Shown: piece after piece, positions 20,750-39,890 of the stretch
How the letters are laid out: each line of letters opens with the position of its first letter
How positions within the stretch are numbered: position 1 is the stretch's first letter
Source of the DNA: Terriglobia bacterium
GTDB taxonomy: Bacteria > Acidobacteriota > Terriglobia > 20CM-2-55-15
NCBI GenBank assembly: GCA_965218585.1
Contig: CBDCLE010000024.1
Coordinates: 224,001 to 288,000 of the forward strand
Direction of reading: 5' to 3'
DNA: 64,000 nt
Made by a program: the position numbers and the translations under genes
Notes under the pieces: generated by a model
Told to the model about the DNA's origin: nothing
Database searches by the model: none
What the model saw: the letters and a program-made list of their open reading frames with translations, nothing else

Positions 20750-21571
20750 ATGTCCGGACCACTGGAAAACCGAACCGTAGCGATCACAGAGCATCGTTTT
20801 GAGAATGAATTGATGACTCTGATCGAAAGACATGGTGCCCGGGTTCTTTCCTGTCCGCTGCTGGAAGAGCGTCCGGTCGGGAACCGGTTTGAGTTACAGG
20901 TCTTTATAAGAGAACTCATCGCGGATGGATTCGACTTCATGGTGTTTTTCACGGGAGTCGGTGCCCGGTTTATTGCCCAAGAGGCCGATACGATGGAGCA
21001 GTCGGATCAATACAGGCAAGCGCTCGGCGGAATGAAAGTCGTGGCTCGGGGCAACAAACCCAGATCAGCGTTGGCGAAGCTGGGATTAGGTGTAGATCTG
21101 GCGCCAGAAAAAGCGACTTCTGAAGGTTTGCTCGAACTGCTCGCGGAGGAAGGGATCGATGGAAAACGCGTCGGGGTTCAGCTCTACGGCAGCCCGAACC
21201 CGGATTTCATCGCGGGCCTGGAAAACCTTGGGGCTCGGATCACAGTCGTTCAGGTCTACAACTATGGCCCGGCTTCGGATTCGGAGCGGGTGGTCGGTTT
21301 TATCGATACACTACTTTCCGGCGAAGTTGACGTGATCACCTTTACCAGTGCGCCGCAGGTCGAGTCTCTCTTCGACACTGCCAATACGGCGGGCCGAGCA
21401 GGGAAACTCGGTGTCGCTTTGAACGAGAAAATCTCTGTTGCAGCAGTGGGCGAAGTAACCGAGCGGGCGTTGGTTGGCTACGGGATCACCGTGCGGATTC
21501 TTCCCAGGGCGCCAAAGATGGGCCCTCTGGCGGATGCGATTGCTCAGTATTTCGACAAGAGACAATGGTGA
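20750..21571 (+). CDS. hemD: Uroporphyrinogen-III synthase
   Basis: LENRTVAITE, FFTGVG, ARGNKP, QLYG, ITFTSAPQV, AVGEVT; directly upstream of cysG. Confidence 0.85.
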   Translation: MSGPLENRTVAITEHRFENELMTLIERHGARVLSCPLLEERPVGNRFELQVFIRELIADGFDFMVFFTGVGARFIAQEADTMEQSDQYRQALGGMKVVARGNKPRSALAKLGLGVDLAPEKATSEGLLELLAEEGIDGKRVGVQLYGSPNPDFIAGLENLGARITVVQVYNYGPASDSERVVGFIDTLLSGEVDVITFTSAPQVESLFDTANTAGRAGKLGVALNEKISVAAVGEVTERALVGYGITVRILPRAPKMGPLADAIAQYFDKRQW

Positions 21572-22979
21572 AGTATTTTCCGATTTCGTTGAACGTGAAG
21601 AGCCGGGACGTGACGGTGATCGGGGGTGGTCTGATCGCCGAGCAACGGGTCGAGACGTTGCTCGAGTGTGAGGCGCGCGTGAAGGTCATCAGCCCGGAGG
21701 TGACGGAAAGGCTAAAGTCTCTTGCCGAGGACGGTTCCATTCGCGTTCAGTTGCGCGGCTACGCGCCCGGGGATCTTGACGGCGCGTGGGTGGCGCTGGC
21801 TGCCGCCGATGATTCATCTGTCAATGACGCAGCCTGGGGTGAGGCGCGAGAGCGTGACATTCCTATCAATGTGGCGGACGATGCTTCCCGGTGTGATTTC
21901 ATCATGCCCGCGCTCGTGCGCCGAGGCGATCTGACAATTGCGATATCCACGGGTGGCACGAGCCCTGCTCTGGCAGCTCGATTGCGGCGCCGTATATCCG
22001 CGATCGTGGGACCCGAATACGGGAAGCTGCTCCGGGTCTTGAGCCGCGTTCGGTCCCGGCTGAAACAGTCGGTGCCCGACGATGAAGAACGCAAGAAACT
22101 GCACTACCGGATCGTGGATTCGAAGATCCTTGGGAGAATACTCGAATCAGAACGCGAGATAGTCGATTCCGAGATCGATGAAATCATCAGGGATGCTTCC
22201 CGAACAGAACCCGAGGCAGAAGGTGTTGTGTATATCGTCGGCGCCGGTCCAGGGGACCCGGGTCTGATCACCTGGCGCGGTCTGGAGTGTGTGCGCCATG
22301 CCGATGTGATCTTGCACGATCGTCTCACGGACCCACGCCTGCTGGAGGAGTCGGGTCCGGGTGCAGAGGTCATCGACGTCGGAAAACGCGCCGGAGATCG
22401 CGGCCGCATGCAGGATTTCATCCATGAAACGATGGTCGAGCGGGCTCGGCGTGGTCAGATAGTCTGTCGTCTGAAAGGGGGAGATCCTTTTGTATTTGGG
22501 CGGGGCGGGGAAGAGGCGATGGCGTTGACCGGGGCCGACGTTCCCTTTGAAATCATACCCGGAGTGACCAGTGCGATCGCAGCGCCGGCTGCTGCCGGAA
22601 TACCGTCACGCACCGTGGTGCGGCGCATTCTTTCATGGTGATGACAGGTTCCCGGGCCGACGATGCCAGTCCCGAGGAATGGGCGGGAGCGGGAAGCATT
22701 CTTGCGGGAGGAGGAACGTTGGTGGTCCTGATGGGGCTGTCCCGTCTGGATGTCATCGTGAAACGGCTCAGTGAAGCTGGTTGTTCAGGTGAGACGCCTG
22801 CTGCTGTGATTTCTCGTGGAGCCTGGACCGAACAGGATGTTCGTATCGGGACACTGGAAGACATCAAGACTCGATCGGGAGGAATCGCGTCGCCCGCGGT
22901 AATCGTTTTCGGTGTGACCATCGAGGAGAGAGGCCGGCTCCGAGAGGTACGTGCCGCTATGTCGAACAGAAAAGCGTGA
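21565..22979 (+). CDS. cysG: Siroheme synthase CysG (dehydrogenase/ferrochelatase + SUMT); frameshift at ~22605
   Basis: VIGGG, NVADD..CDFIMP, IAISTGG.SP; VGAGPGDPGLIT, RLKGGDPFVFGRGGEE, PGVTSA; adding one base restores GIPVTHRGAAHSFMVMTG and joins ORFs 21565-22641 and 22635-22979. Confidence 0.9.
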
Positions 22980-22993
22980 GGCGGAACCGAGTC

Positions 22994-23275
22994 TTAGATT
23001 CGCCCGCCGGAGATCGCTGGAATAATCGCAACTTCCGCTCCTGTTGGAACCTTTGTCTTCAGGTCGTCCAGGAAACGTACATCTTCGCCATCGACGTAGA
23101 TGTTGAAGAAGCGTCTTAATTCTCCCGTGTCTTCACACAGGCGGTCTTTGAGCCCCGGATATTTCTGATCCAACTCATCGAGAATGTCCGAGATCGTCTC
23201 GGCCTGGACATCGATCTGGGAATCCTCTGCGGTGAAATGCCTGAGGGGTGTAGGGATGGTGACCCGAGTCGTCAT
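22994..23275 (-). CDS. MoaD/ThiS/CysO-family ubiquitin-like sulfur carrier protein
   Basis: VTIPTPLR..LRRFFNIYVDGEDVRFL..IIPAISGG followed by a two-residue extension RI. Confidence 0.9.
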   Translation of the reverse strand: MTTRVTIPTPLRHFTAEDSQIDVQAETISDILDELDQKYPGLKDRLCEDTGELRRFFNIYVDGEDVRFLDDLKTKVPTGAEVAIIPAISGGRI

Positions 23276-23300
23276 CGAATTCCTCCGTTCTTAATTTGAC

Positions 23301-24539
23301 TTACGCGGTTAGGCCCAGTTCGTTCACGGCAGCATCGAATGCTCCAAGTTTTGCTTCGATCACTCTTGGAGACTGAAGGTTTAGAGCATCTTGCGTCTTC
23401 AGGCCGTTTCCGGTGATCGCAATAACTGTCTGGTCATGAGGCTTTATCTTTCCCTGTGCAACAAGTTTTCGAGTCACTCCTAGAGCGACTCCCCCGGCAG
23501 TTTCGGTGAAGATGCCTTCGGTTTCAGCCAGCAATTGAATGTTTTCGACTATCTCTTCGTCTGTAACGTCTTCGCCCCACCCACCTGAAGTGGTCATGAT
23601 TTCTGCTGCATAGTATCCGTCTGCGGGCGACCCAATTGCGAGTGACTTGGCGATAGTCGCCGGTTTTACGGGTCGAATGTTCCGGGTTCCGTTTTTGACT
23701 GCTGCCGTTATTGGATTGCAGCCGGTTGCCTGAGCACCGTAAAGCTTGGTTTGAACCGGTGCCTCCAGCAATCCCAGGTTTTCGAATTCTTTCATTCCCA
23801 TGTGAATTTTCGTAATCAGGGATCCTCCGGCCATGGGGACAACGACCGCGTCGGGCGCGCGCCATCCGAGCTGCTCGGCGATTTCGTACCCGAACGACTT
23901 TGACCCGTCACCATAGTAAGGCCGCAGGTTGACGTTGACGAACCCCCAGCCATAACTGTCGGCAACCTGGCTACAGAGGCGGTTGACGTCGTCGTAGTTG
24001 CCGGCAACGGCGATGACGTGGGAGCCATATATAGAAGTAGCGATGACCTTGGCTGTCTCCAGATCCTCAGGAATCAATATCCAGGCGGGCAGTCCGGCTG
24101 CGGCGGCATTAGCCGCGACTGAATTTGCGAGGTTTCCGGTGGAAGCACAGCCGACGGCAGGTAGTCCGAATTCCAGAGCCTTGTTGATCGCGACGGCGGT
24201 GACGCGGTCTTTAAAAGACAGTGTCGGGAAGTTTACGCCCTCGTTCTTGATGTAAAGCTCATCGATGCCGATTTCACGTCCCAGTCGCTGGGCATGAACC
24301 AGAGGTGTGCCTCCCGTCGCCAGTCCGATCTGAGGGTCGTCGTCAATCGGCAGCAGTTCGCGGTAACGCCAGATGGAATTGTCGCGCGAGCGGATGACCT
24401 CTCGCGTTAAGACCCTACCGATTGCTTCGTAGTCGTATTCGACCTTGAGAGGGGCGAAACACTCCTGACACCCGGCAATCGGGGTCTTAGGGTACTGATG
24501 GCCGCATTCTCGACAGCTTAGCCCCGTAACGAAGCTCAT
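23301..24539 (-). CDS. Threonine synthase-like fold-II PLP enzyme (candidate O-phosphohomoserine sulfhydrylase)
   Basis: N-terminal CxxC..CxxC, PTLSFKDR (PLP Lys), CASTGNLA, NVNLRPYY, KSLAIGSPADG, ITGNGLKT; co-oriented with the sulfur carrier gene. Confidence 0.88.
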   Translation of the reverse strand: MSFVTGLSCRECGHQYPKTPIAGCQECFAPLKVEYDYEAIGRVLTREVIRSRDNSIWRYRELLPIDDDPQIGLATGGTPLVHAQRLGREIGIDELYIKNEGVNFPTLSFKDRVTAVAINKALEFGLPAVGCASTGNLANSVAANAAAAGLPAWILIPEDLETAKVIATSIYGSHVIAVAGNYDDVNRLCSQVADSYGWGFVNVNLRPYYGDGSKSFGYEIAEQLGWRAPDAVVVPMAGGSLITKIHMGMKEFENLGLLEAPVQTKLYGAQATGCNPITAAVKNGTRNIRPVKPATIAKSLAIGSPADGYYAAEIMTTSGGWGEDVTDEEIVENIQLLAETEGIFTETAGGVALGVTRKLVAQGKIKPHDQTVIAITGNGLKTQDALNLQSPRVIEAKLGAFDAAVNELGLTA

Positions 24540-24576
24540 TCATCTCTCCTGGGCGCGTACCAGCGGGTTCCACAAT

Positions 24577-24614
24577 AAAAAAAGAACCCCGCGCCATACA
24601 GCACGGGGTTCTTT
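24577..24614 (-). terminator. Intrinsic terminator of downstream riboswitch unit
   Basis: Minus strand AAAGAACCCCGTGC-TGTATG-GCGCGGGGTTCTTT followed by a T run, ~40 nt before the start codon. Confidence 0.85.
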
Positions 24615-24626
24615 CGAAATCCGCCG

Positions 24627-24678
24627 GACTGTTTAGCACATTTTTAACGTGGAGCAATTTGTCTTTAAATCGCCACGC
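24627..24678 (-). ncRNA. SAM-II-like riboswitch aptamer, copy 2
   Basis: CGUGG-CGAUUU-AAAGACAAA-UUGC-U-CCACG-UUAAAAAUGU-GCUAAA-CAG; has the SAM-II pattern (P1 stem, GAUUU, UUGC, A-rich linker, GCUAAA). Confidence 0.78.
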
Positions 24679-24688
24679 TGCCCATACT

Positions 24689-24716
24689 AAAAACCCTACG
24701 CCAACGGCGCAGGGCT
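24689..24716 (-). terminator. Intrinsic terminator of upstream riboswitch unit
   Basis: Minus strand AGCCCTGCGCC-GTT-GGCGTAGGGTT-TTT. Confidence 0.8.
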
Positions 24717-24731
24717 TCAGTGGGACACCTG

Positions 24732-24782
24732 AGCTGTTTAGCACATTTTTAACGTGGAGCAATTTGCGTAAATCACCACGCC
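24732..24782 (-). ncRNA. SAM-II-like riboswitch aptamer, copy 1
   Basis: CGUGG-UGAUUU-ACGCAAA-UUGC-U-CCACG-UUAAAAAUGU-GCUAAA-CAG; 33 nt identical to copy 2 (24734-24766 = 24629-24661). Confidence 0.8.
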
Positions 24783-24796
24783 TAACCAGCCCAGTG

Positions 24797-24826
24797 AGAA
24801 TAGCCCGGTGCAGTCTGCACCGTCAA
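24797..24826 (-). promoter_or_regulatory. sigma70-type promoter for the riboswitch leader
   Basis: TTGACG-18nt-TATTCT on the minus strand, predicting a start ~10 nt before aptamer 1; palindrome CGGTGCAG-T-CTGCACCG (24806-24822) in the spacer. Confidence 0.6.
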
Positions 24827-24862
24827 CTTATCTTTTCGTCGGACCCCGCGAAGAAAGTGGCG

Positions 24863-24950
24863 AAAAAGTGGGGACAGGTCACTCTTTTTGCGTCTGTGCC
24901 GCACTCGAAGACGAAGAGCGGGCAAAAAGAGTGACCTGTCCCCACTTTTT
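24863..24950. repeat. Long perfect inverted repeat (REPIN/MITE-like)
   Basis: 29-bp arms AAAAAGTGGGGACAGGTCACTCTTTTTGC (24863-24891) and its exact complement (24922-24950), 30-nt spacer. Confidence 0.85.
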
Positions 24951-25055
24951 TAAAGACGCCGGCTTCCAGGCTGAAGGGCTATCATAAAGATAGGACGGAA
25001 AGGGGTTTAGATCGTTGTTGAAGGCTGCAAGGACGCAAGAAGTGGGGGTTCTGTA

Positions 25056-26978
25056 GTGGGCGAGTTGATGGTCAAGCGCTTGAAGACCGACCAGCTGAGG
25101 CACTTCGCCAAGACGCTTTTACGTGATGTGCGGGCCCTGGAGCGAATGCTTTCGGAAGGCTTGATCCAGTCGGGCCAGCGCCGGATAGGCTGTGAACAGG
25201 AAATGTTTCTCGTCGACAGGGCGTGGCGGCCGTTTCCGGTAGCGCTGGAGATACTCGACCGGCTGGGGGATGCACATTTCACGACCGAACTCGGGCGCTT
25301 CAATCTGGAAGCGAATCTCGACCCTCAGGCGTTCGAAGGGGACTGCCTGTCGCGGATGGAAGCAGATCTTCTGGCCAAGCTTGCCGCCGTACGCGAGGTT
25401 GCCCATGGGATGGGCGGAGAGATCGTTCTGACGGGTATTCTTCCAACGCTGCGGAAGTCGGACCTCGTTCTTGACAACCTGACTCCCAAGCCACGTTATT
25501 ACGCGCTCAACGAAGCCATGAATCAACTTCGTGGCGGCGATTATGAGTTTAGGTTGCGGGCTTCGGATGAACTCATCGTCAAACAGGATTCCGTCATGCT
25601 GGAATCCTGCTGCACCAGTTTTCAGATCCACTATCAAACCGATCCGGAAGATTTTGTCCAGCTCTACAATGGGGCGCAGGCGTTCACAGCGCCGCTTCTT
25701 GCAGCAGCTGTCAACTCTCCGATGCTGTTCGGCCGGCGTCTGTGGTTCGAAACCCGCGTACCTCTGTTTCAGCAGGCTATCGATACGCGCCGAGCAACGG
25801 CATCACTGAGAGAGCGTTCGTCGCGCGTAAGTTTTGGGGAACGTTGGTTGGAAGGTTCTGTTGTGGAGTTGTTCCGTGAAGACATTGCCCGATTCCGCAT
25901 TCTGCTGGGTGTTGAAGTCGACGAAGATTCACTTGCCACCCTCAAACAGGGGGAGATTCCCGATTTGAGGGCACTTCAGGTACACAACGGAACAGTTTAT
26001 CGATGGAACCGCGCCTGTTACGGCTCGAACGGCACGACGCCGCACCTAAGGATTGAAAATCGTGTTCTGCCCTCAGGTCCGACAGTTCTGGATGAGGTGG
26101 CAAACGCTGCGCTGTTCTTCGGACTGATGCATGCCATGCCTGACGCATACCCGAACCTCTCCAATGTGATGGATTTTGACGATGCACACGTGAACCTCAT
26201 GGTTGCCGCACAGACGGGATTGAAAGCGCGCTTTCGGTGGATTCACGGAAGAGCCATATCCGCAGGGGATCTGATCCTCGAAGAGTTGTTGCCGATTGCA
26301 CGGGAGGGTTTGAAGTCTGGGGGAATCACCCAGGCTGATGTAGACCGGTATCTGGGCGTCATTGAAGAACGGGTGTCGGCGGGCCGAACCGGAGCACAGT
26401 GGATGTTGAAGTCGTTTGCCGACACTCGGGGGCTTCGTCGGGATGCTGCGCTCACGGCTTTGACGGCGGCGACAGTCCAGCGACAGTGGAGTGGAGAGCC
26501 GGGCTATCGGTGGAAGCCTGCAACATTGGAGGAAGGTATGACCCTCGAACGCCAGAAATTGCGGATCGAAGAATCGATGAGCACAGATCTGTTTACGATT
26601 CATCCGGACGAACCCATCGACCTAGTGACGAATCTGATGGACTGGAAGCGCATTCGCCACGTTCCCGTTGAAGATGACGACGGACGGTTAGTGGGACTCG
26701 TGTCTTATTCTGAGGTGCTCCGATACTTCAACCAGGGTGGAAAGGAAGAAGGCCTTCCGGTATCTGCGGATTCTATTATGGATCCTGAACCAGTGACCGT
26801 ATCACCGGAAACACCGGTGTTGGATGCGATCTCGTTGATGACCGAAAAGAAAGCTGATTGTCTGCTTGTGGTCAAGGATGAGCGGCTTGTGGGGATTGTG
26901 ACCGAACATGACGTGCTGAGTCTGGCAGCGCACCTTCTCGCTGAAGGCCAGAATGGTGCCGGGGTTCGGAACGGATGA
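25056..26978 (+). CDS. Glutamate-cysteine ligase family 2 (GCS2/YbdK-like) protein fused to a C-terminal CBS pair
   Basis: IGCEQEMFLVD, TTELGRFNLE, TSFQIH, ETRVPLFQQAID, HNGTVYRWNR, HLRIENRVLPSGPT; IRHVPV and LVGIVTEHD CBS motifs. Confidence 0.88.
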   Translation: MGELMVKRLKTDQLRHFAKTLLRDVRALERMLSEGLIQSGQRRIGCEQEMFLVDRAWRPFPVALEILDRLGDAHFTTELGRFNLEANLDPQAFEGDCLSRMEADLLAKLAAVREVAHGMGGEIVLTGILPTLRKSDLVLDNLTPKPRYYALNEAMNQLRGGDYEFRLRASDELIVKQDSVMLESCCTSFQIHYQTDPEDFVQLYNGAQAFTAPLLAAAVNSPMLFGRRLWFETRVPLFQQAIDTRRATASLRERSSRVSFGERWLEGSVVELFREDIARFRILLGVEVDEDSLATLKQGEIPDLRALQVHNGTVYRWNRACYGSNGTTPHLRIENRVLPSGPTVLDEVANAALFFGLMHAMPDAYPNLSNVMDFDDAHVNLMVAAQTGLKARFRWIHGRAISAGDLILEELLPIAREGLKSGGITQADVDRYLGVIEERVSAGRTGAQWMLKSFADTRGLRRDAALTALTAATVQRQWSGEPGYRWKPATLEEGMTLERQKLRIEESMSTDLFTIHPDEPIDLVTNLMDWKRIRHVPVEDDDGRLVGLVSYSEVLRYFNQGGKEEGLPVSADSIMDPEPVTVSPETPVLDAISLMTEKKADCLLVVKDERLVGIVTEHDVLSLAAHLLAEGQNGAGVRNG

Positions 26979-28129
26979 CCTTGCGAGTGGACGACCGGGT
27001 GATCGGGCGATGGGGCGACTCGGTGACCGGCCCTCTTGTTATTGCGATTGCCGGATTGCACGGTAACGAGCCCGCCGGAGTTACTTCCGCATGGCGGGTT
27101 CTGGGCAAGCTTGCGGAATATTCACCGGCGTTTTCGGGAAGGCTGCTGATCCTGGCGGGTAACCTACCGGCTCTGGCTCATGGTCACAGGTTTGTCGATG
27201 AAGATCTGAACCGTATCTGGTTTCCGGAGCGGCTTCGCGAAGAGGATTTCCGAATCCATCCTCCCGGAACAGTAGAAGAAGCGGAGCAGCGGGAAATGCT
27301 GCACGAGATCAATCGGGTGCTGGATGGTTTCAATGGAACGGCCTACTTCCTGGATCTCCACACGACGTCGGCTTCGGGAGCGCCGTTTTCCGTCTTGGCC
27401 GACACGCTGTCCAACCGCGAACTTGCAGAAAGACTACCCGGCACGATGGTTCTCGGTCTGGAAGAACACCTCGACGGGACCCTACTCAACTACGTGAATG
27501 ATCTGGGGCATGTTGCGATTGGTTTTGAAGGAGGCGAGCACGATTCCCCCGACTCGCTCGAGGCCCAGGAGTTGGCGGTGTGGGAGACACTGGTTCTGGC
27601 CGGATGCGTTCGCCATTGGGAGGTGCCCGGCCTAGATCTGCTGATCGAAACTGTGGAAGCGCGGGCCAAGGGAACGCCAAGGGTTGTTGAAATCAGGCAC
27701 AGGCATCATGTCGTGCCGGACGATGATTTCGAGATGAAGGCCGGATTTCGGAACCTGCAACCGATCGGCCATAGCCAGGTGTTAGCCAGGGACCGGAACG
27801 GAGAGATATTGGCCACCGAAGACGGGCGGATACTGATGCCTCTGTATCAAAGTCAGGGCAGCGACGGATTTTTCATCGTTCGCGAGGTCCGTTCATTCTG
27901 GTTGGCCCTGGCTGTCTGGATGAGGAGGTTCCGCTTAGACAGGCTTCTCCCTCTCATGCCCGGAGTGGCGCCACACCCGGGGGCCGCGGACAGCTTCGTG
28001 ATCAATAACAGGGTCGCCCGTTGGTTCGTCGTTGAGGTATGTCACCTGCTGGGCTTTCGCCGGAAACGCCTCGAAGGCGGGCAGCTGATCGTCAGCCGCC
28101 GTAGAGAGGCGCCCGTGAGAAGTGCCTGA
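26975..28129 (+). CDS. Succinylglutamate desuccinylase/aspartoacylase (M14-like Zn hydrolase)
   Basis: GLHGNEPAG, DEDLNRIW, LDLHTTS, FEGGEH; ATGA overlap with the ligase. Confidence 0.9.
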   Translation: MTLRVDDRVIGRWGDSVTGPLVIAIAGLHGNEPAGVTSAWRVLGKLAEYSPAFSGRLLILAGNLPALAHGHRFVDEDLNRIWFPERLREEDFRIHPPGTVEEAEQREMLHEINRVLDGFNGTAYFLDLHTTSASGAPFSVLADTLSNRELAERLPGTMVLGLEEHLDGTLLNYVNDLGHVAIGFEGGEHDSPDSLEAQELAVWETLVLAGCVRHWEVPGLDLLIETVEARAKGTPRVVEIRHRHHVVPDDDFEMKAGFRNLQPIGHSQVLARDRNGEILATEDGRILMPLYQSQGSDGFFIVREVRSFWLALAVWMRRFRLDRLLPLMPGVAPHPGAADSFVINNRVARWFVVEVCHLLGFRRKRLEGGQLIVSRRREAPVRSA

Positions 28130-33673: not shown

Positions 33674-35812
33674 TCAGGCTTTCGTGTAGACCGTCTGCGC
33701 CTGTTCGAGGAAGAGGGCCGCCTCTTCTACACGACGCCTGGAATCATCGGCCGAGAATTCCTTGCCGTTTCCTTCTTTCGCCCTGAAAAAGTTTTCCGCG
33801 AAAGGCTTGTAGAACTGACCTGTGTCATAAAACCTTTTCCGAAATTCGCCGACACTGTCGTAGTTGTCCGACAAAAGGAGACCCTCGGTCGACAGCAGGG
33901 CATCGGCAGCTTTCATGGTTGCATCCATCGCCCCTTCGGCGGCTTCCTGATAGCGTTCTTCATCCAGGGCCAACGTGGCTTCGAAAACCAGACGGTCCGC
34001 TTCCTCCAGCATGAACTCGGCCTGATCCACCATTGCACCGGCGCACTCCCCGACTCCGGTTTCCTTGTGGTACTTCCACGTTTGCCGGCTGTCGAGGTAG
34101 AGTTCGGGTGTCTCCTCGAAGCGGGGGAGCGTAAGATCTTCGATCGCGGACTTCAGACGGGCCTTGCCGAGCCGTTCCACGAATTGGGAGAACGTCTCGT
34201 CTTCCTGTTTTTCTACGGAATACAGGTCGGTCAGGCGTTGGACCACTCGCGTCGCGTTACGCGCAGGGACTTTCGCGGTGACCAGTCCGTAGGACGCCGC
34301 ATTGCCTTCCCCGGTGCCGCCAAGGACCACCTGAAAGACCGGGGCCGTATAGGCGCCCTTGCGTTGGACTGAACCGAGGAATCCGATGTCGGCGATGTGG
34401 TGCTGACCGCAGGAGTTGAAGCACCCACTGATCTTGATCTTGATGTCCTCCCGACGGGCTATCTCTGCCATGCCACTGTTGAACTGTTTATCGAAGTCCG
34501 CAGCCAGGCCGCGGGAGGATGTAATGCCGAGCTTGCAGGAATCGGTGCCGGGGCAAGCGGTGATGTCTGCCATGCGGTTAGCTCCCGCACGGTCGAGCCC
34601 GATGCGTTTGAGATCGTCGTAGAGAGCAGGCAGATCTCTGTTTGAAACCCAGCGGAGAAGCAGGTTCTGGGTAACCGTCGTGCGCGCCGTATCACTGATG
34701 TAGTTGGTGCAGACGCTCGCCAGTTCCCGAAGTTGGTCTGCAGTGATATCCCCGAGAGGAAGAAACACTTCGACCATTGAGTAGCCGTCCTGAACCTGGG
34801 GCCGGACGTTTGTTTCGAACCAGGCCTTAAACCGAGAATCGGTCTGCGCCTCGGGGTCGAGCGTGGATCCGGGTTTCAGCGGCTGTTCAATATAGGTAGA
34901 CGCTTTGGCGATCGCGCCCTCCCACTCCGGGTCGTCGGGTAGCTTCGCGCGCTCTTCTTCAACCAGGCGCCTAAACTCGTCTATCCCCAGAATGTTGACC
35001 AGGAACTTCATTCGTGCCCGATTTCTGTCGTCTTTCTCTCCGAGGCGTGCGAACACGCGAGACATCGCCTGCGCTAGGGGTAGCATCTCGTCGGCGGGAA
35101 CGAACTCGCTATAGAGTTTCGCCTGGTGGGGAATTGCGCCGAGGCCACCCCCGACGTAGACCTTAAAGCCCTGGACCTTCTGTCGGCCTTCCTCGCGCAC
35201 CATCGCCACTGCGCCGATGTCATGCATTTTGGCTAGGCCACAGGGTTTGTCCTGGCATCCGGAGTATGCAATCTTGAACTTCCGTCCGAAGTTCTGCGCA
35301 TCGGGATGGCGCAGGAGGAAAGCGGCCATCGCCTGGGCGTGGGGCGTTGGATCGAATTCTTCGGTAGAGCACACACCCGCTTCCGGACAGCCCGTTACGT
35401 TGCGGACGACATTGCCGCAGGCTTCCCGGGTCGTAATTCCAACCTCTGCCAGCCTCCGCATGAGGTTGGGTGTGTCGTCGATGTCCACGAAGTGGTACTG
35501 AACATCCTGGCGGGTCGTGATGTGGCTGATGCCGTCAGCGTATTCCTCCGACAGATCAGCCAGTTGAATCATCTGTTCGATGGTCAGCATCCCCAACGGT
35601 ATCTTTATGCGTTGCATTTGGACGCCATCCTGACGCTGTCCATAGACGCCGTGCCTGAGCCGGAACTCCAGAAAGACCTTTTCCGACATCTGGCCGGTCT
35701 GGACGCGTTTGAGTTGCGTCTCGAAGACGTCAATCTCGTCGCGGATATCTTTAGGCAGATGGGCCCATCGATCTTCGGGCTGCGGTTCGGTGGGTGTTTC
35801 AGTTGTTGCCAT
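33674..35812 (-). CDS. sir: Siroheme-[4Fe-4S] sulfite (nitrite) reductase with C-terminal HEPN-like extension
   Basis: FRLRHGVYGQRQ, HITTRQDVQ, ACGNVVRNV, RKFKIAYSGC, ACPGTDSCKLG, KISGCFNSCGQH, GVGECAG; divergent from cys operon. Confidence 0.9.
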   Translation of the reverse strand: MATTETPTEPQPEDRWAHLPKDIRDEIDVFETQLKRVQTGQMSEKVFLEFRLRHGVYGQRQDGVQMQRIKIPLGMLTIEQMIQLADLSEEYADGISHITTRQDVQYHFVDIDDTPNLMRRLAEVGITTREACGNVVRNVTGCPEAGVCSTEEFDPTPHAQAMAAFLLRHPDAQNFGRKFKIAYSGCQDKPCGLAKMHDIGAVAMVREEGRQKVQGFKVYVGGGLGAIPHQAKLYSEFVPADEMLPLAQAMSRVFARLGEKDDRNRARMKFLVNILGIDEFRRLVEEERAKLPDDPEWEGAIAKASTYIEQPLKPGSTLDPEAQTDSRFKAWFETNVRPQVQDGYSMVEVFLPLGDITADQLRELASVCTNYISDTARTTVTQNLLLRWVSNRDLPALYDDLKRIGLDRAGANRMADITACPGTDSCKLGITSSRGLAADFDKQFNSGMAEIARREDIKIKISGCFNSCGQHHIADIGFLGSVQRKGAYTAPVFQVVLGGTGEGNAASYGLVTAKVPARNATRVVQRLTDLYSVEKQEDETFSQFVERLGKARLKSAIEDLTLPRFEETPELYLDSRQTWKYHKETGVGECAGAMVDQAEFMLEEADRLVFEATLALDEERYQEAAEGAMDATMKAADALLSTEGLLLSDNYDSVGEFRKRFYDTGQFYKPFAENFFRAKEGNGKEFSADDSRRRVEEAALFLEQAQTVYTKA

Positions 35813-36940: not shown

Positions 36941-37651
36941 ATGACAAACGCAGACGTTTCCAAAGAAATAATGTCCCAGCGGGTAGAGGGCGTCATAGCT
37001 GTTTTGAGGGATGTCGTCTCCTCGTCGGCTCCGGCTGCGTTTGCTTCCAGTTTCGGTGTCGAAGACATGGTTCTTCTCGACCTGATCGCCACCCATGCCC
37101 GCGAAATAGAAGTGTTCACCCTCGACACAGGCAGGTTGCCCGAAGAGACATACCGATTGATGTCCAAGGCCAGGGAGCGCTATCCGGTTCCTGTTCGCGT
37201 GTATTGTCCCGAAGGGCAAGCCCTCGGAACATACATCGAGCGGAACGGTCCGGACGCCTTCTATCAAAGCGTCGCGCAAAGACGCGAGTGCTGCCACATT
37301 CGCAAGGTGGAACCTCTGGGACGTGCTCTGGAAGGAAAAAAGTCGTGGGTGACAGGTTTGAGACGAGACCAGTCGCCGACGCGTGAAAACCTCGACATCA
37401 AACTCTGGGACAAGACCAACGGTATTTTCAAGTTCAATCCTCTTCTAGAGTGGGGCGTAGACGAGGTGTGGGCCTACATTCGTACCAACGATGTTCCCTA
37501 TAACAGTCTCCACGACGCCGGCTATCCCAGTATCGGTTGCGGACCGTGCACGCGTGCGGTCGAGCCAGGTGAGGATATCCGCTCCGGCCGCTGGTGGTGG
37601 GAGAGTGCCGATTCCAAGGAGTGTGGCCTGCACGCGGCCAAACAATCGTGA
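36941..37651 (+). CDS. cysH: APS reductase ([4Fe-4S]-type CysH)
   Basis: [43 protein letters not shown]. Confidence 0.93.
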
Positions 37652-38559
37652 TCATGGATGTGAAAGCGCACTCGAGCCACCTCGACGTTCTTGAAGACGA
37701 GTCGATCTTCATTCTTCGGGAGGTTGCGGCAGAATTCCGGAACCCGGTCATCCTGTATTCGATCGGTAAGGATTCCAGTGTCCTGGTTCACCTTGCAAGG
37801 AAAGCGTTTCATCCCGCGCCGATCCCGTTTCCCCTGTTGCACATCGATACGGGATACAAGTTCCAGGAGATGATCGAGTTTCGCGACCGGTTCGCGGCAT
37901 CGATTGGCGCCCGCCTGATCGTACATCGGAACGAGGAGGCTATTGCGTCCGGAGCGCACCCTCTGAAACTCGGCGTGGCTCGATGCTGCGGGCAGCTGAA
38001 GACTGAAGCGTTGCTCCAGGCACTTGAAGAACATGAGTTCGATGCGGCGATCGGAGGTGCCCGCCGAGATGAGGAGCGCTCCCGGGCAAAGGAGCGCGTT
38101 TTCTCTTTCAGGGACGCGTTTGGTCAGTGGGATCCCAAGAATCAACGCCCTGAACTCTGGCATGTGTTCAACACACGTGTTTTCGAGGGCGAGAGTATGC
38201 GCGTGTTTCCGCTGTCGAACTGGACCGAAGCCGACATCTGGCACTACATTCGCAGGGAAGAGATTCCGATTGTTCCTTTGTATTTTGCCAAGGAGCGCCT
38301 GGTCGTCGAGCAGGGACCAAATCTCATTCCGGCCGACGACGCCGGGAACGTCAAGGAAGGGGAGGTACCCAGGACGATGTGCGTCAGGTTTCGGACACTG
38401 GGCTGTGCTCCCTGCACAGGGGCCGTGGCTTCGGAAGCGACGACGTTGGATGAGATTGCCATTGAAGCAGCCGCAGCTATTCGCAGTGAACGTGGGACGC
38501 GCGTGATCGATCATGGGGCCAACACCATGGAAGACAAGAAGAAGGAAGGCTACTTTTGA
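37648..38559 (+). CDS. cysD: Sulfate adenylyltransferase subunit 2
   Basis: [54 protein letters not shown]. Confidence 0.96.
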
Positions 38560-39890
38560 CCTCGACAACGACTCCGATTGGCATCGATCAGATAAAACTG
38601 CTGAGGCTGACGACGGCCGGCAGCGTGGACGACGGGAAGTCCACATTGATCGGCCGCCTTCTTGTGGACACGAAAGGAGCTTTCGAGGATCAGATTGCGG
38701 CCGCCACCGATTACAACGAACAGCGCGGCGGGCGGGGAATGGACTTTGCGCTTCTGACCGACGGCCTGCGCGCGGAGAGGGAGCAGGGCATCACGATTGA
38801 TGTAGCCTACCGATACTTCGCGACACCCAAGCGAAGATTCATCATCGCCGATACTCCGGGACACGAACAGTACACGCGCAACATGGTGACGGGCGCCAGC
38901 ACGGCAGACCTGGCGCTGATCCTTGTCGACGCGAGAAACGGTATGGTGACCCAGTCCCGCCGCCACATCTGTATTGCCCATTTGCTCGGGATCACCGACT
39001 TCGTTATCGCGATCAACAAGATGGATCTGATGAACTATTCCGAGTCCATTTACGCCGAGATCAGGGATCAGTTTACCGATTTCTTCGAGCGGCTCGGTGT
39101 CCGCCATGCGCGGGCGCACAAGGCCTGGTACGTTCCCATGTCTGCATCCGAAGGAGATATGGTCGTGGAACGTGGCGATCAGATGGGATGGTATCGGGGA
39201 GAAACATTGCTCGAACTGCTCGAATCTGTAGAGCCGGCCACAGATGTTTCCACCGCCGGTGTCCGCTTTCCGGTGCAGATGGTCTCCCGCCCCCAGACCA
39301 AAGAGCTTCCGGATTTCCGGGGGTACATGGGACGTATGGCATCGGGGAGTCTCTCGGTTGGAGACACGGTCCGCGTCCTCCCTTCGGGACTATCGAGCCG
39401 GGTGAAGAGCATCGTTACTTTTGATGGGGAGCTTGACAGTGTCGAGGCGCCCCGATCGGTGACAATCACTCTGGAAGACGACATCGACATTTCCAGGGGG
39501 GACACGATCGTGGGTGAAGGTGACGATCCCCGGATCACCAAGGAATTTGCAGCCACGATGTGCTGGATGTCGGACGCTTCGCTGGAGAGTGGTAAGAAGT
39601 ATTTGATCAAGCACGGTTCACGGACGACCAAAGCTCTCGTTTCACGGGTCGACCACCTCATCGACGTCAACTCGCTCAAGACAACGCTCGAGACCGATGC
39701 CGAGGACCGAACGTTCGAGAAGAACGATATCGGTCGAGTCCAGATCAAGACACTACAGCCGTTGGTCTGTGACGCCTACCGGTCGAATAGGGAAACCGGA
39801 GCGTTTATCCTCATCGACCCCGTCAATCACGACACGCTCGCCTGTGGCATGATCGACCTGCCTCGCGACGGTTTCGCACCCAACATTTAA
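38556..39890 (+). CDS. cysN: Sulfate adenylyltransferase subunit 1 (no APS-kinase domain)
   Basis: [45 protein letters not shown]. Confidence 0.96.

Follow-up and report, generated by a model that had tools for sequence, protein, structure and literature searches.

An acidobacterial metM–metO operon, probably of the Streptomyces MetM/MetO family, behind two SAM-II-like aptamers in series

INTRODUCTION

In the CysO–CysM–Mec system of mycobacteria, a thiocarboxylated ThiS-like carrier protein gives sulfur to a fold-type II pyridoxal phosphate (PLP) enzyme; the further components are a JAMM hydrolase and an E1 enzyme of the MoeZ type. A thiocarboxylate route to homocysteine, using O-acetylhomoserine and a MetY-type (PF01053) enzyme, was reportedly described by Krishnamoorthy and Begley in 2011 for HcyS/MetY of Wolinella succinogenes. 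Here we analyse a 64,000-nt stretch of a Terriglobia bacterium genome (phylum Acidobacteriota; positions 224,001–288,000 of contig CBDCLE010000024.1, assembly GCA_965218585.1), called the window below, in which metM, a gene for a threonine synthase (ThrC)-like PLP enzyme, is followed by metO, a gene for a sulfur carrier, behind a leader RNA that resembles riboswitches for S-adenosylmethionine (SAM) that belong to the SAM-II class. Numbers with the letters L, G, C and f are our handles for loci, genomes, contigs and families.

The closest described system is the pathway of Streptomyces albulus, in which MetM (UniProt A0A059WBP2) is the homocysteine synthase and MetO (A0A059W7F4) carries the sulfur, alongside Mec and MoeZ (Hasebe et al., Appl Environ Microbiol 2024;90:e0124724, as cited in GapMind 2026 and PMC12172450). 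GapMind 2026, citing Hasebe et al. 2024, lists MetO, Mec, MoeZ and MetM ('MetO-thiocarboxylate-dependent homocysteine synthase') as having experimental evidence in Streptomyces, and reports that MetM is often misannotated as threonine synthase. A SAM riboswitch upstream of S. albulus metM and homologues in cyanobacteria are described in PMC12172450. An initial annotation of the window, made from the sequence alone, had pointed to a Streptomyces precedent for carrier-mediated formation of homocysteine; the precedent exists and is this system. The MetM/MetO pathway itself is not new, having been published in 2024. Judged by sequence, the window system is a member of that published family, in a phylum that is new relative to the Streptomyces system.

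SAM-II riboswitches have been described in alpha- and gamma-Proteobacteria and Bacteroidetes (Barrick and Breaker 2007), often with a terminator downstream of the aptamer (Barrick and Breaker 2007; Scheuer et al. 2022), and a tandem SAM-II/SAM-V arrangement is known from Pelagibacter. Among the titles and abstract openings that our literature search returned, we found no account of SAM-II in Acidobacteria. The novelty of the present locus is modest, and consists of a tandem SAM-II leader that scores below the Rfam threshold and of the apparent dominance of the route in the class.

RESULTS

A two-gene unit for a ThrC-like enzyme and a sulfur carrier

metM (23301–24539, minus strand) encodes a 412-aa ThrC-like, fold-type II PLP enzyme (Pfam PALP, E = 8.8e-67) with an N-terminal CxxC...CxxC zinc-ribbon, and metO (22994–23275, minus strand) encodes a 93-aa sulfur carrier of the ThiS/MoaD fold (55.8 bits on Pfam ThiS, PF02597, whose cut-off is 22.5, and 64.4 bits on NCBIfam SAMP1, whose cut-off is 60) that ends in ...SGG-RI. 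The two open reading frames (ORFs) lie exactly where the initial annotation had placed a unit of this composition. They have the same orientation and are 25 nt apart; an AGGAGAG ribosome-binding site precedes the ATG of metM, and metO has a GGAGG ribosome-binding site of its own. We conclude that the unit is very probably a metM–metO operon, orthologous to the MetM/MetO route of Streptomyces, with MetM as the predicted MetO-thiocarboxylate-dependent homocysteine synthase.

On the NCBIfam thrC equivalog TIGR00260 the metM product scores 285.4 bits, above the cut-off of 167.1, and pipelines therefore name it threonine synthase; the warning that standard annotation would mislabel this gene was apt, and GapMind 2026 mentions misannotation of this kind. 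The product stays below the cut-off of a PRK08197-type model (285.6 against 303), gives a weak match to a cysteate-synthase hidden Markov model (HMM; 65.5 bits against a cut-off of 324.9) and matches the cysteine-synthase A model NF007989 with E = 4e-10, far under the cut-off. Compared to the CysO/CysM pair, the enzyme partner is thus ThrC-like and not a CysM-type O-phosphoserine sulfhydrylase. Its best solved relatives are all threonine synthases, with Thermus thermophilus ThrC at the top (184.5 bits); solved threonine synthases align to it only from about residue 55, and the CxxC...CxxC N-terminal segment remains unaligned. A Pfam scan of 44 of the 56 window ORFs of at least 90 aa, plus one extra ORF, gave no second PALP or PF01053 protein, and metM is the only genome-wide PF01053 or thrC-family match inside the window (C24:224001-288000). 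The reported absence of cysK, cysM and metY from the window was confirmed by both searches.

MetM groups with Streptomyces orthologues and apart from threonine synthases

A phylogeny had been suggested as a check on the identity of the enzyme. We built a maximum-likelihood tree with 34 rows, using E. coli ThrC as the root. The window protein falls within a 22-row clade with 100/100 support, and the ThrC types lie outside it. The clade includes 3 rows from Streptomyces and each of the 18 rows that have metO or a SAM riboswitch beside them; four rows of the clade have neither in the fetched flanks. Its sister (96/96) is the clade of ThrC3, a paralogue from the same genome; canonical actinobacterial ThrC and a plant-type clade, ThrC2, are further out. 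One row of the tree, Solirub_G151_ThrC, with an end branch of 10, was rejected as an ORF-picking artefact.

The 33 remaining rows were used for a residue comparison of the 22 MetM-clade rows with 8 ThrC rows. The ThrC motif set SFKDxG, STGNT/STGDT, S..N..R and GN.GN is not kept by the MetM clade. In 22/22 MetM rows, G113 is replaced by V (SFKDRG to SFKDRV), T137 by L (STGNT to STGNL), S204/N206/R209 by N/R/Y (S..N..R to N..R..Y) and G237 by A (GN.GN to AGG), whereas 8/8 ThrC rows have G at the first position, T at the second and the ThrC letters at the others. The substituted positions presumably line the active site or have a catalytic role.

Among Actinomycetota, 137 of 301 genomes have a MetM homologue at E <=1e-80, with 45–60% identity. 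metO lies directly downstream of metM in 34 of 36 actinobacterial loci, as it does in the near relatives L023 and L044 and in the planctomycete loci L046, L050 and L058. Six actinobacterial loci (L282–L287, from genomes of 7.7–9.9 Mb) all combine a SAM-I riboswitch (76–81 bits against a gathering score of 44.4; 77.6 bits in L282), a ThrC-like gene and metO. The 432-aa ThrC-like protein of L282, from a 9.2-Mb genome, is 52% identical to window MetM, 32.5% to ThrC3 and 29% to ThrC2, and when it was used as a query all 80 matches listed were titled Streptomyces, with 90–98% identity. Of 20 loci scanned for it, 7 have SAM-I at its gathering score ahead of the MetM homologue, and a scan of 14 loci gave 10 such cases. 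A search with the back-translated AGNYDDVN motif, which is GC-biased, returned 36 loci with none from Streptomyces, and a search for relatives of an Acidimicrobiia homologue returned only Acidimicrobiia-like metagenome-assembled genomes (MAGs). The nearest titled relative of window MetM, at 86% identity, comes from a Terriglobia bacterium MAG.

Among the MetO-homologue tails that were read, 99 end exactly at GG and the others carry short tails. Window MetO ends in SGG followed by RI, the carriers of L282–L285 and L287 in GG, and that of L286 in GGC. The RI tail would need to be trimmed before the carrier could be activated.

Several loci depart from the simple gene pair. The closest titled relative (L045 and L023, on the same MAG contig; G072:C41:293586) has a second, partial metM (residues 179–412, 85% identity), which is accompanied by a full metO, at another place on the contig. 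In Vicinamibacterales-like loci a second ThrC-like gene, 29–35% identical, adjoins metM either upstream (L033, L038, L040–L042 and L064) or downstream (L059 and L081), and genes of the downstream kind fall with the plant-type clade of ThrC2. In one actinobacterial genome (L252:2741-3775) the MetO carrier is fused in frame to a ThiF-type E1, directly after metM.

Two aptamer–terminator units precede metM

All leader elements lie on the minus strand and are given in the order of transcription. A sigma-70-like promoter candidate (24797–24826; TTGACG, 18-nt spacer, TATTCT) is the sole site that a consensus scan gave in 22800–25100; shuffled sequences gave a mean of 1.0, which makes this weak evidence, and the position just 5' of the first aptamer fits. 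The distal SAM-II-like aptamer (aptamer 1, 24717–24789) is followed by a terminator-like hairpin (24689–24716), AAGCCCUGCGCC-GUU-GGCGUAGGGUUUUU, read in the sequence and in a ViennaRNA fold; its GC-rich stem of 12–13 bp precedes a U run, and it is absent from the list of a simple terminator scan. The proximal aptamer (aptamer 2, 24612–24686) is followed by an intrinsic terminator (24580–24615) with a 16-bp stem and a U-tract, found both by the terminator scan and in folds.

At the gathering score, Rfam reached no family in the whole window. A permissive Rfam scan of 22800–25300 matched the SAM-II model RF00521 (gathering score 36) at both aptamers, with 26.7 bits for aptamer 1 and 29.9 bits for aptamer 2. 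Each match covers model positions 1–79 of 79, with identical letters at GAUUU, UUGC, CCACGUUAAA and GCUAAA; the core of aptamer 1 reads GAUUU..UUGC..CCACG..GCUAAA. Across the 4.55-Mb genome these are the only two notable RF00521 matches (E = 1.4e-4 for aptamer 2 and 1.1e-3 for aptamer 1; the next has E = 0.59). On this evidence the matches are above chance yet under the curated threshold. The SAM-II-like control that had been read upstream of metM was therefore recovered as two tandem, sub-threshold matches, and these have comparative support as follows.

With a threshold of E <=0.01, RF00521 matches occur in 29 of 151 genomes sampled from the class to which the window belongs, and no more than 2 of the 29 exceed the gathering score. 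They cluster in two families, f1 (16/20 genomes) and f2 (6/6), and by our collation lie just upstream of a metM homologue in 24 of the 29 genomes; in one, the match precedes a metY-like ORF (L207). Three matches (L197, L208 and L213) were rejected as false since they lie inside long coding-like sequence and have no core motif; these, along with L200 from an unpublished genome, were excluded from alignments A1 and A2. A covariance model, R1, was built from the 27 aptamers of A1, in which the core blocks GAUUU, UUGC, CCACG and GCUAAA are invariant or nearly so. R1 found 44 copies in 28 of the 54 sources supplied, and only two in the window's own genome, aptamer 2 (77.7 bits) and aptamer 1 (73.7 bits). 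In 16 genomes metM is preceded by two aptamers in series (R1 gives 15 of these, with L023 and L202 merged as the same genome, and RF00521 adds G064); in 8 it is preceded by a single copy.

Pairing was tallied in an alignment of 44 sequences for a putative H-type pseudoknot with 6 pairs in P1, 3 in P2a and 4 in P2b, the last with one bulged U. Over P1, P2a and P2b together, 94.6% of cells are paired, compared with 26–53% when the 3' partners are slid by 1–3 columns, in sequences that are related and in an alignment fitted to P1 by the model; L192, partly misaligned in A2, supplies some of the cells scored as not paired. Double-sided changes occur in four pairs, two in P1 and two in P2a, and two of the four come from atypical sequences (the L191, L215 and L209 copies). 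The RNA is thus conserved and partially covarying, and we take the leader to be a lineage-specific SAM-II variant that would bind SAM.

When the RNA was folded with its end placed before the 3' arm of the terminator, the 3' tail of P2 paired with the 5' arm of the terminator in both units; in full-length minimum free energy folds of each unit the terminators form and there is no antiterminator. The tail-to-arm pairing is a thermodynamic prediction for the single sequence of the window. Pairing of the tail in the shortened folds and the terminator in the full-length fold together fit an off-switch, and we infer a mechanism of the following kind. The leader would consist of two complete riboswitch units of the SAM-II type, one behind the other; in both of them, SAM binding would lock the 3' tail into the P2 pseudoknot, and the locked tail could no longer pair with the 5' arm of the next terminator, which would then form and stop transcription. 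In this way SAM would shut off metM–metO expression.

The aptamer type was also seen in other settings; those before the HTH_17 and TonB-dependent receptor-like genes described next come from genomes that the 29 above already include. In the congeneric genome G064, two SAM-II-like copies (L191:1501-1803 and L215:1276-1582; RF00521 34.0 and 30.7 bits, R1 54.5 and 49.6) overlap the GAGG ribosome-binding site and ATG of a gene for a 79-aa HTH_17 protein (excisionase/AlpA-like), which in L191 is followed by an Xre-type HTH gene and then a tyrosine integrase gene; P1 of these copies shows a compensatory change from G-C to C-G. An aptamer in G003 (L192:1501-1574, RF00521 30.1 bits) lies upstream of a gene whose TonB-dependent receptor-like product has CarboxypepD_reg, Plug and OMP barrel domains and may serve to take up methionine or some related compound. 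In G046 (L207:343-415), an aptamer with a terminator lies ahead of an ORF that, by eye, looks metY-like, with an O-acetylhomoserine sulfhydrylase-like N-terminus; a Pfam scan of the neighbouring ORF in another frame gave nothing, and this genome has no match for the MetM query and two MetX matches. In L194 (G056, C1:1396448-1400698) a tandem riboswitch is followed by a metM start that ends after about 19 codons, with the remaining metM (residues 17–412, 73% identity) about 2.8 kb further on, so that this metM appears to have been split by an insertion.

Genome inventory and predicted pathway

The genome (26 contigs, 4.55 Mb, 95.5% complete) has three thrC-family genes above the TIGR00260 cut-off. 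ThrC2 (442 aa) is of the plant type, with 479 bits to Arabidopsis threonine synthase, and is likely to be the housekeeping threonine synthase. ThrC3 (393 aa; G000:C17:103938-104906, L003:1465-2646, minus strand) shares the zinc-ribbon N-terminus of window MetM, to which it is 34% identical, and reaches 555.6 bits on PRK08197; no carrier was seen at its locus, R1 found no leader aptamer copy there, and it has counterparts in G021 and in an Acidimicrobiia genome. The proposed search for a second thrC thus turned up two further paralogues, so metM is not the sole ThrC homologue. Neither metA nor metX, whose absence was to be checked, nor DUF39/HcyBio was found in the 95.5% of the genome that is represented.

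The components that the route would need are encoded in the genome, none of them at the operon: a homoserine kinase gene, thrB (266 bits), in an asd–thrB cluster, and candidates for a Mec-type JAMM peptidase and a MoeZ-type E1. The only ThiF-family E1 has an N-terminal rhodanese domain. There are two JAMM (Prok-JAB) proteins, one of which is directly followed by a ThiS-like carrier ending in GGF (the pair C1:15913-16609). Since the other ThiS-domain proteins are MoaD–MoaE and ThiS–ThiG fusions, MetO appears to be a dedicated extra carrier. A separate CysM-like gene lies at C2:43017. metH is present (1682 bits), and no metE scored above its cut-off in the genome.

From this inventory we infer the following chemistry. 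Homoserine kinase, the thrB product, would make O-phosphohomoserine; a JAMM peptidase would trim MetO to a C-terminal Gly-Gly, and the single rhodanese–ThiF E1 would adenylate the trimmed carrier and convert it to a thiocarboxylate. MetM would then eliminate phosphate from O-phosphohomoserine on PLP and add the carrier sulfur to yield homocysteine, which MetH would methylate to methionine. The route from O-phosphohomoserine to homocysteine that the initial annotation had proposed is supported to this extent, in that the enzyme groups with Streptomyces metM-type genes and not with ThrC, and no metA or metX was found.

Distribution in the class

In the 151-genome class sample, MetM (E <=1e-90) was found in 99 genomes, MetX (E <=1e-50) in 37 and MetA in 4, counting the unpublished genomes G075 and G097, on which by themselves no conclusion depends. 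When collated by hand, 89 genomes have MetM and neither MetX nor MetA, 31 have MetX and no MetM, 10 have both and 21 have none. Between families the divide is sharp: family f1 has MetM in 17/20 and MetX in 0/20, and family f5 has MetM in 0/19 and MetX in 19/19. These counts describe a pattern and are not a test, as related genomes are not independent.

Neighbouring genes

The sulfur-metabolic context given at the outset, hemD–cysG beside the operon with sir and cysHDN about 10 kb away, was borne out by profile scans. hemD (20750–21571, Pfam/NCBIfam matches) and cysG (21565–22979, plus strand), for siroheme synthase, converge on metM–metO from one side, and Pfam matches place sir (33674–35812, minus strand), cysH (36941–37651), cysD (37594–38559) and cysN (38556–39890) 10–15 kb off.

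cysG reads as two overlapping ORFs, 21565–22641 and 22635–22979. The stretch 21500–24456 was found to be identical in public-run contigs, with the sole difference of one extra C in cysG; this C, behind 22602, occurs in contigs of three public runs (two samples, two studies) and puts cysG in one frame. cysG is also in one frame in the relative L023. Because the public-run contigs and L023 keep one frame, the break (22602–22641) is most likely an assembly error in a C run and not a sign of a pseudogene.

The interval that separates the promoter candidate of metM from the divergent gene contains a perfect inverted repeat, whose arms (24863–24891 and 24922–24950) are each about 29 nt long. A 25–33-nt arm of it recurs on at least 10 contigs of the genome, often as inverted pairs, and the repeat is a member of a dispersed REP- or MITE-like family. 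The divergent genes (25056–28129, plus strand) are one for a 640-aa fusion of a GCS2-type carboxylate-amine ligase domain and two CBS domains and, translationally coupled to it, one for an AstE/AspA-like deacylase; the fusion also adjoins the metM leader in the relatives L187, L188 and L196. A link of this protein to sulfur or SAM through its CBS domains is only a guess.

Alternative explanations

Several observations weigh against the metM–metO interpretation or against a SAM-II leader. The link to the characterised S. albulus MetM (UniProt A0A059WBP2) is made by way of orthologues from the same genus, and the 80 matches listed for the L282 protein do not include S. albulus. Many MetM homologues, those of Poribacteria and Vicinamibacterales among them, lack a metO within 3 kb, and the Mec and MoeZ candidates of the genome are unlinked to the operon. 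The genome also encodes a PF01053 protein that just passes the NCBIfam cut-off for cystathionine gamma-synthase (517.2 against 513), along with two further PF01053 genes, one of them split, and plant-like transsulfuration of O-phosphohomoserine could be a parallel source of homocysteine. A Microcystis homologue acted as threonine synthase/deaminase in vitro and gave no rise in methionine in cells, according to PMC12172450. As for the leader, both aptamers score under the Rfam gathering score, the invariant P2b contributes no covariation, the model fitted the alignment to P1, and atypical sequences supply half of the double changes.

The threonine-related activities of the Microcystis protein, the TIGR00260 score and the exclusively threonine synthase-like solved relatives could all be accommodated if metM were a genuine, redundant threonine synthase and the neighbouring carrier unrelated. 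We consider this scarcely credible, as the genome already has a plant-type ThrC and a third paralogue, the MetM clade departs at positions kept by ThrC rows (V113, L137 and N/R/Y), metO is conserved beside metM, and orthologues from several phyla have a SAM riboswitch, of one class or the other of two, ahead of them. SAM control points to methionine and equally argues against another sulfur compound as the product of carrier chemistry, be it cysteine made from O-phosphoserine in a CysM/CysO-like manner or cysteate. Mycobacteria do make cysteine in a carrier-dependent way, the locus adjoins siroheme and sulfate-assimilation genes, and there is the weak match to the cysteate-synthase model; however, the enzyme is ThrC-like, the genome has its CysM-like gene and its JAMM–carrier pair elsewhere, the distribution of metM complements that of MetX, and the orthologous Streptomyces system has been assigned to homocysteine in the sources cited above. 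A different sulfur product is thus very improbable.

It is also very unlikely that MetM makes homocysteine from free sulfide in vivo, with MetO dispensable or serving another client. Such a role would suit the clade members that have no metO nearby and the single E1, which must serve four carriers, but it leaves aside the adjacency of metO in nearly all of the actinobacterial loci, its fusion to an E1 in L252 and the experimental evidence that GapMind 2026 attributes to MetO, Mec and MoeZ in Streptomyces. Finally, the leader elements might be something other than SAM sensors, either SAM-II look-alikes with another ligand or ligand-independent attenuators. Besides the low Rfam scores, the related motifs before the HTH_17 gene beside an integrase and before the TonB-dependent receptor-like gene would fit this, since neither is an obvious SAM gene, and the terminator 3' of the SAM-II aptamer of Sinorhizobium meliloti metA is, in Scheuer et al. 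2022, not predicted to be SAM-responsive. Against it stand the RF00521 letters at GAUUU, UUGC, CCACGUUAAA and GCUAAA, near-invariant in 27 sequences, the position of the motif before metM in most genomes with a match and before a metY-like ORF in one, and the control of the same gene by SAM-I in other lineages; we regard a leader with no SAM-sensing role as unlikely.

DISCUSSION

When a gene of this kind is annotated as threonine synthase, methionine synthesis looks incomplete, with no metA, metX or metY-type start, and such genomes may be wrongly scored as methionine auxotrophs. Once metM–metO is recognised, the gap closes for a large part of one of the major soil phyla, and a simple diagnostic is available that combines clade membership and the motifs SFKDRV and STGNL with a neighbouring metO and a SAM riboswitch. 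With the leader come SAM-II-type aptamers that the Rfam threshold misses, and its natural tandem of like aptamers could be used to study 'digital' riboswitch control.

A broader proposal joins these observations, and we put it forward tentatively, as possible rather than probable. MetM/MetO would be the main, and often the only, homocysteine route in the class; in one family-level lineage it would be gated by an uncatalogued tandem SAM-II variant, with two aptamer–terminator checkpoints that steepen the off-switch; and in a congeneric genome an integrative element would have taken up the same aptamer type at the ribosome-binding site of its excisionase-like gene, tying excision to the SAM level. 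It would be unusual for the excision module of a mobile element to carry a SAM-sensing switch.

Among known systems, MetM/MetO of S. albulus is the most similar. Both consist of a gene for a ThrC-homologous enzyme followed by a gene for a ThiS-like carrier, with a SAM riboswitch upstream, and in both genomes a JAMM peptidase and a rhodanese-bearing E1 are encoded away from the operon; the window protein also shares a well-supported clade with Streptomyces orthologues. Compared with that system, the window operon comes from Acidobacteriota and the E1 of its genome has the rhodanese domain at the N-terminus. The large-genome actinobacterial loci L282–L287, of which L282 is tied to Streptomyces, have a single SAM-I riboswitch, whereas the window leader is a tandem of the SAM-II type, and window MetO carries RI after its Gly-Gly, whereas MetO of L282–L285 and L287 ends in GG.

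The likeness to mycobacterial CysO–CysM–Mec lies in the general scheme of a carrier, a fold-type II PLP enzyme, a JAMM protein and a MoeZ-type E1. The window enzyme differs in being ThrC-like, with O-phosphohomoserine as the predicted substrate and homocysteine as the predicted product, and the separate JAMM–carrier pair of the genome may correspond to a CysO-type system. With HcyS/MetY, as reportedly described, the window system would share homocysteine synthesis that depends on a carrier thiocarboxylate and a carrier that needs C-terminal trimming; it differs in its ThrC-like enzyme and in a genome in which no homoserine acyltransferase was found. The window leader has the conserved core of SAM-II (RF00521), likewise upstream of methionine genes, and a predicted H-type pseudoknot like that of SAM-II. 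Compared to catalogued SAM-II aptamers, those of the window score below the gathering threshold, are acidobacterial and, as in 16 genomes in all, stand as two like aptamers in series, each with its own terminator.

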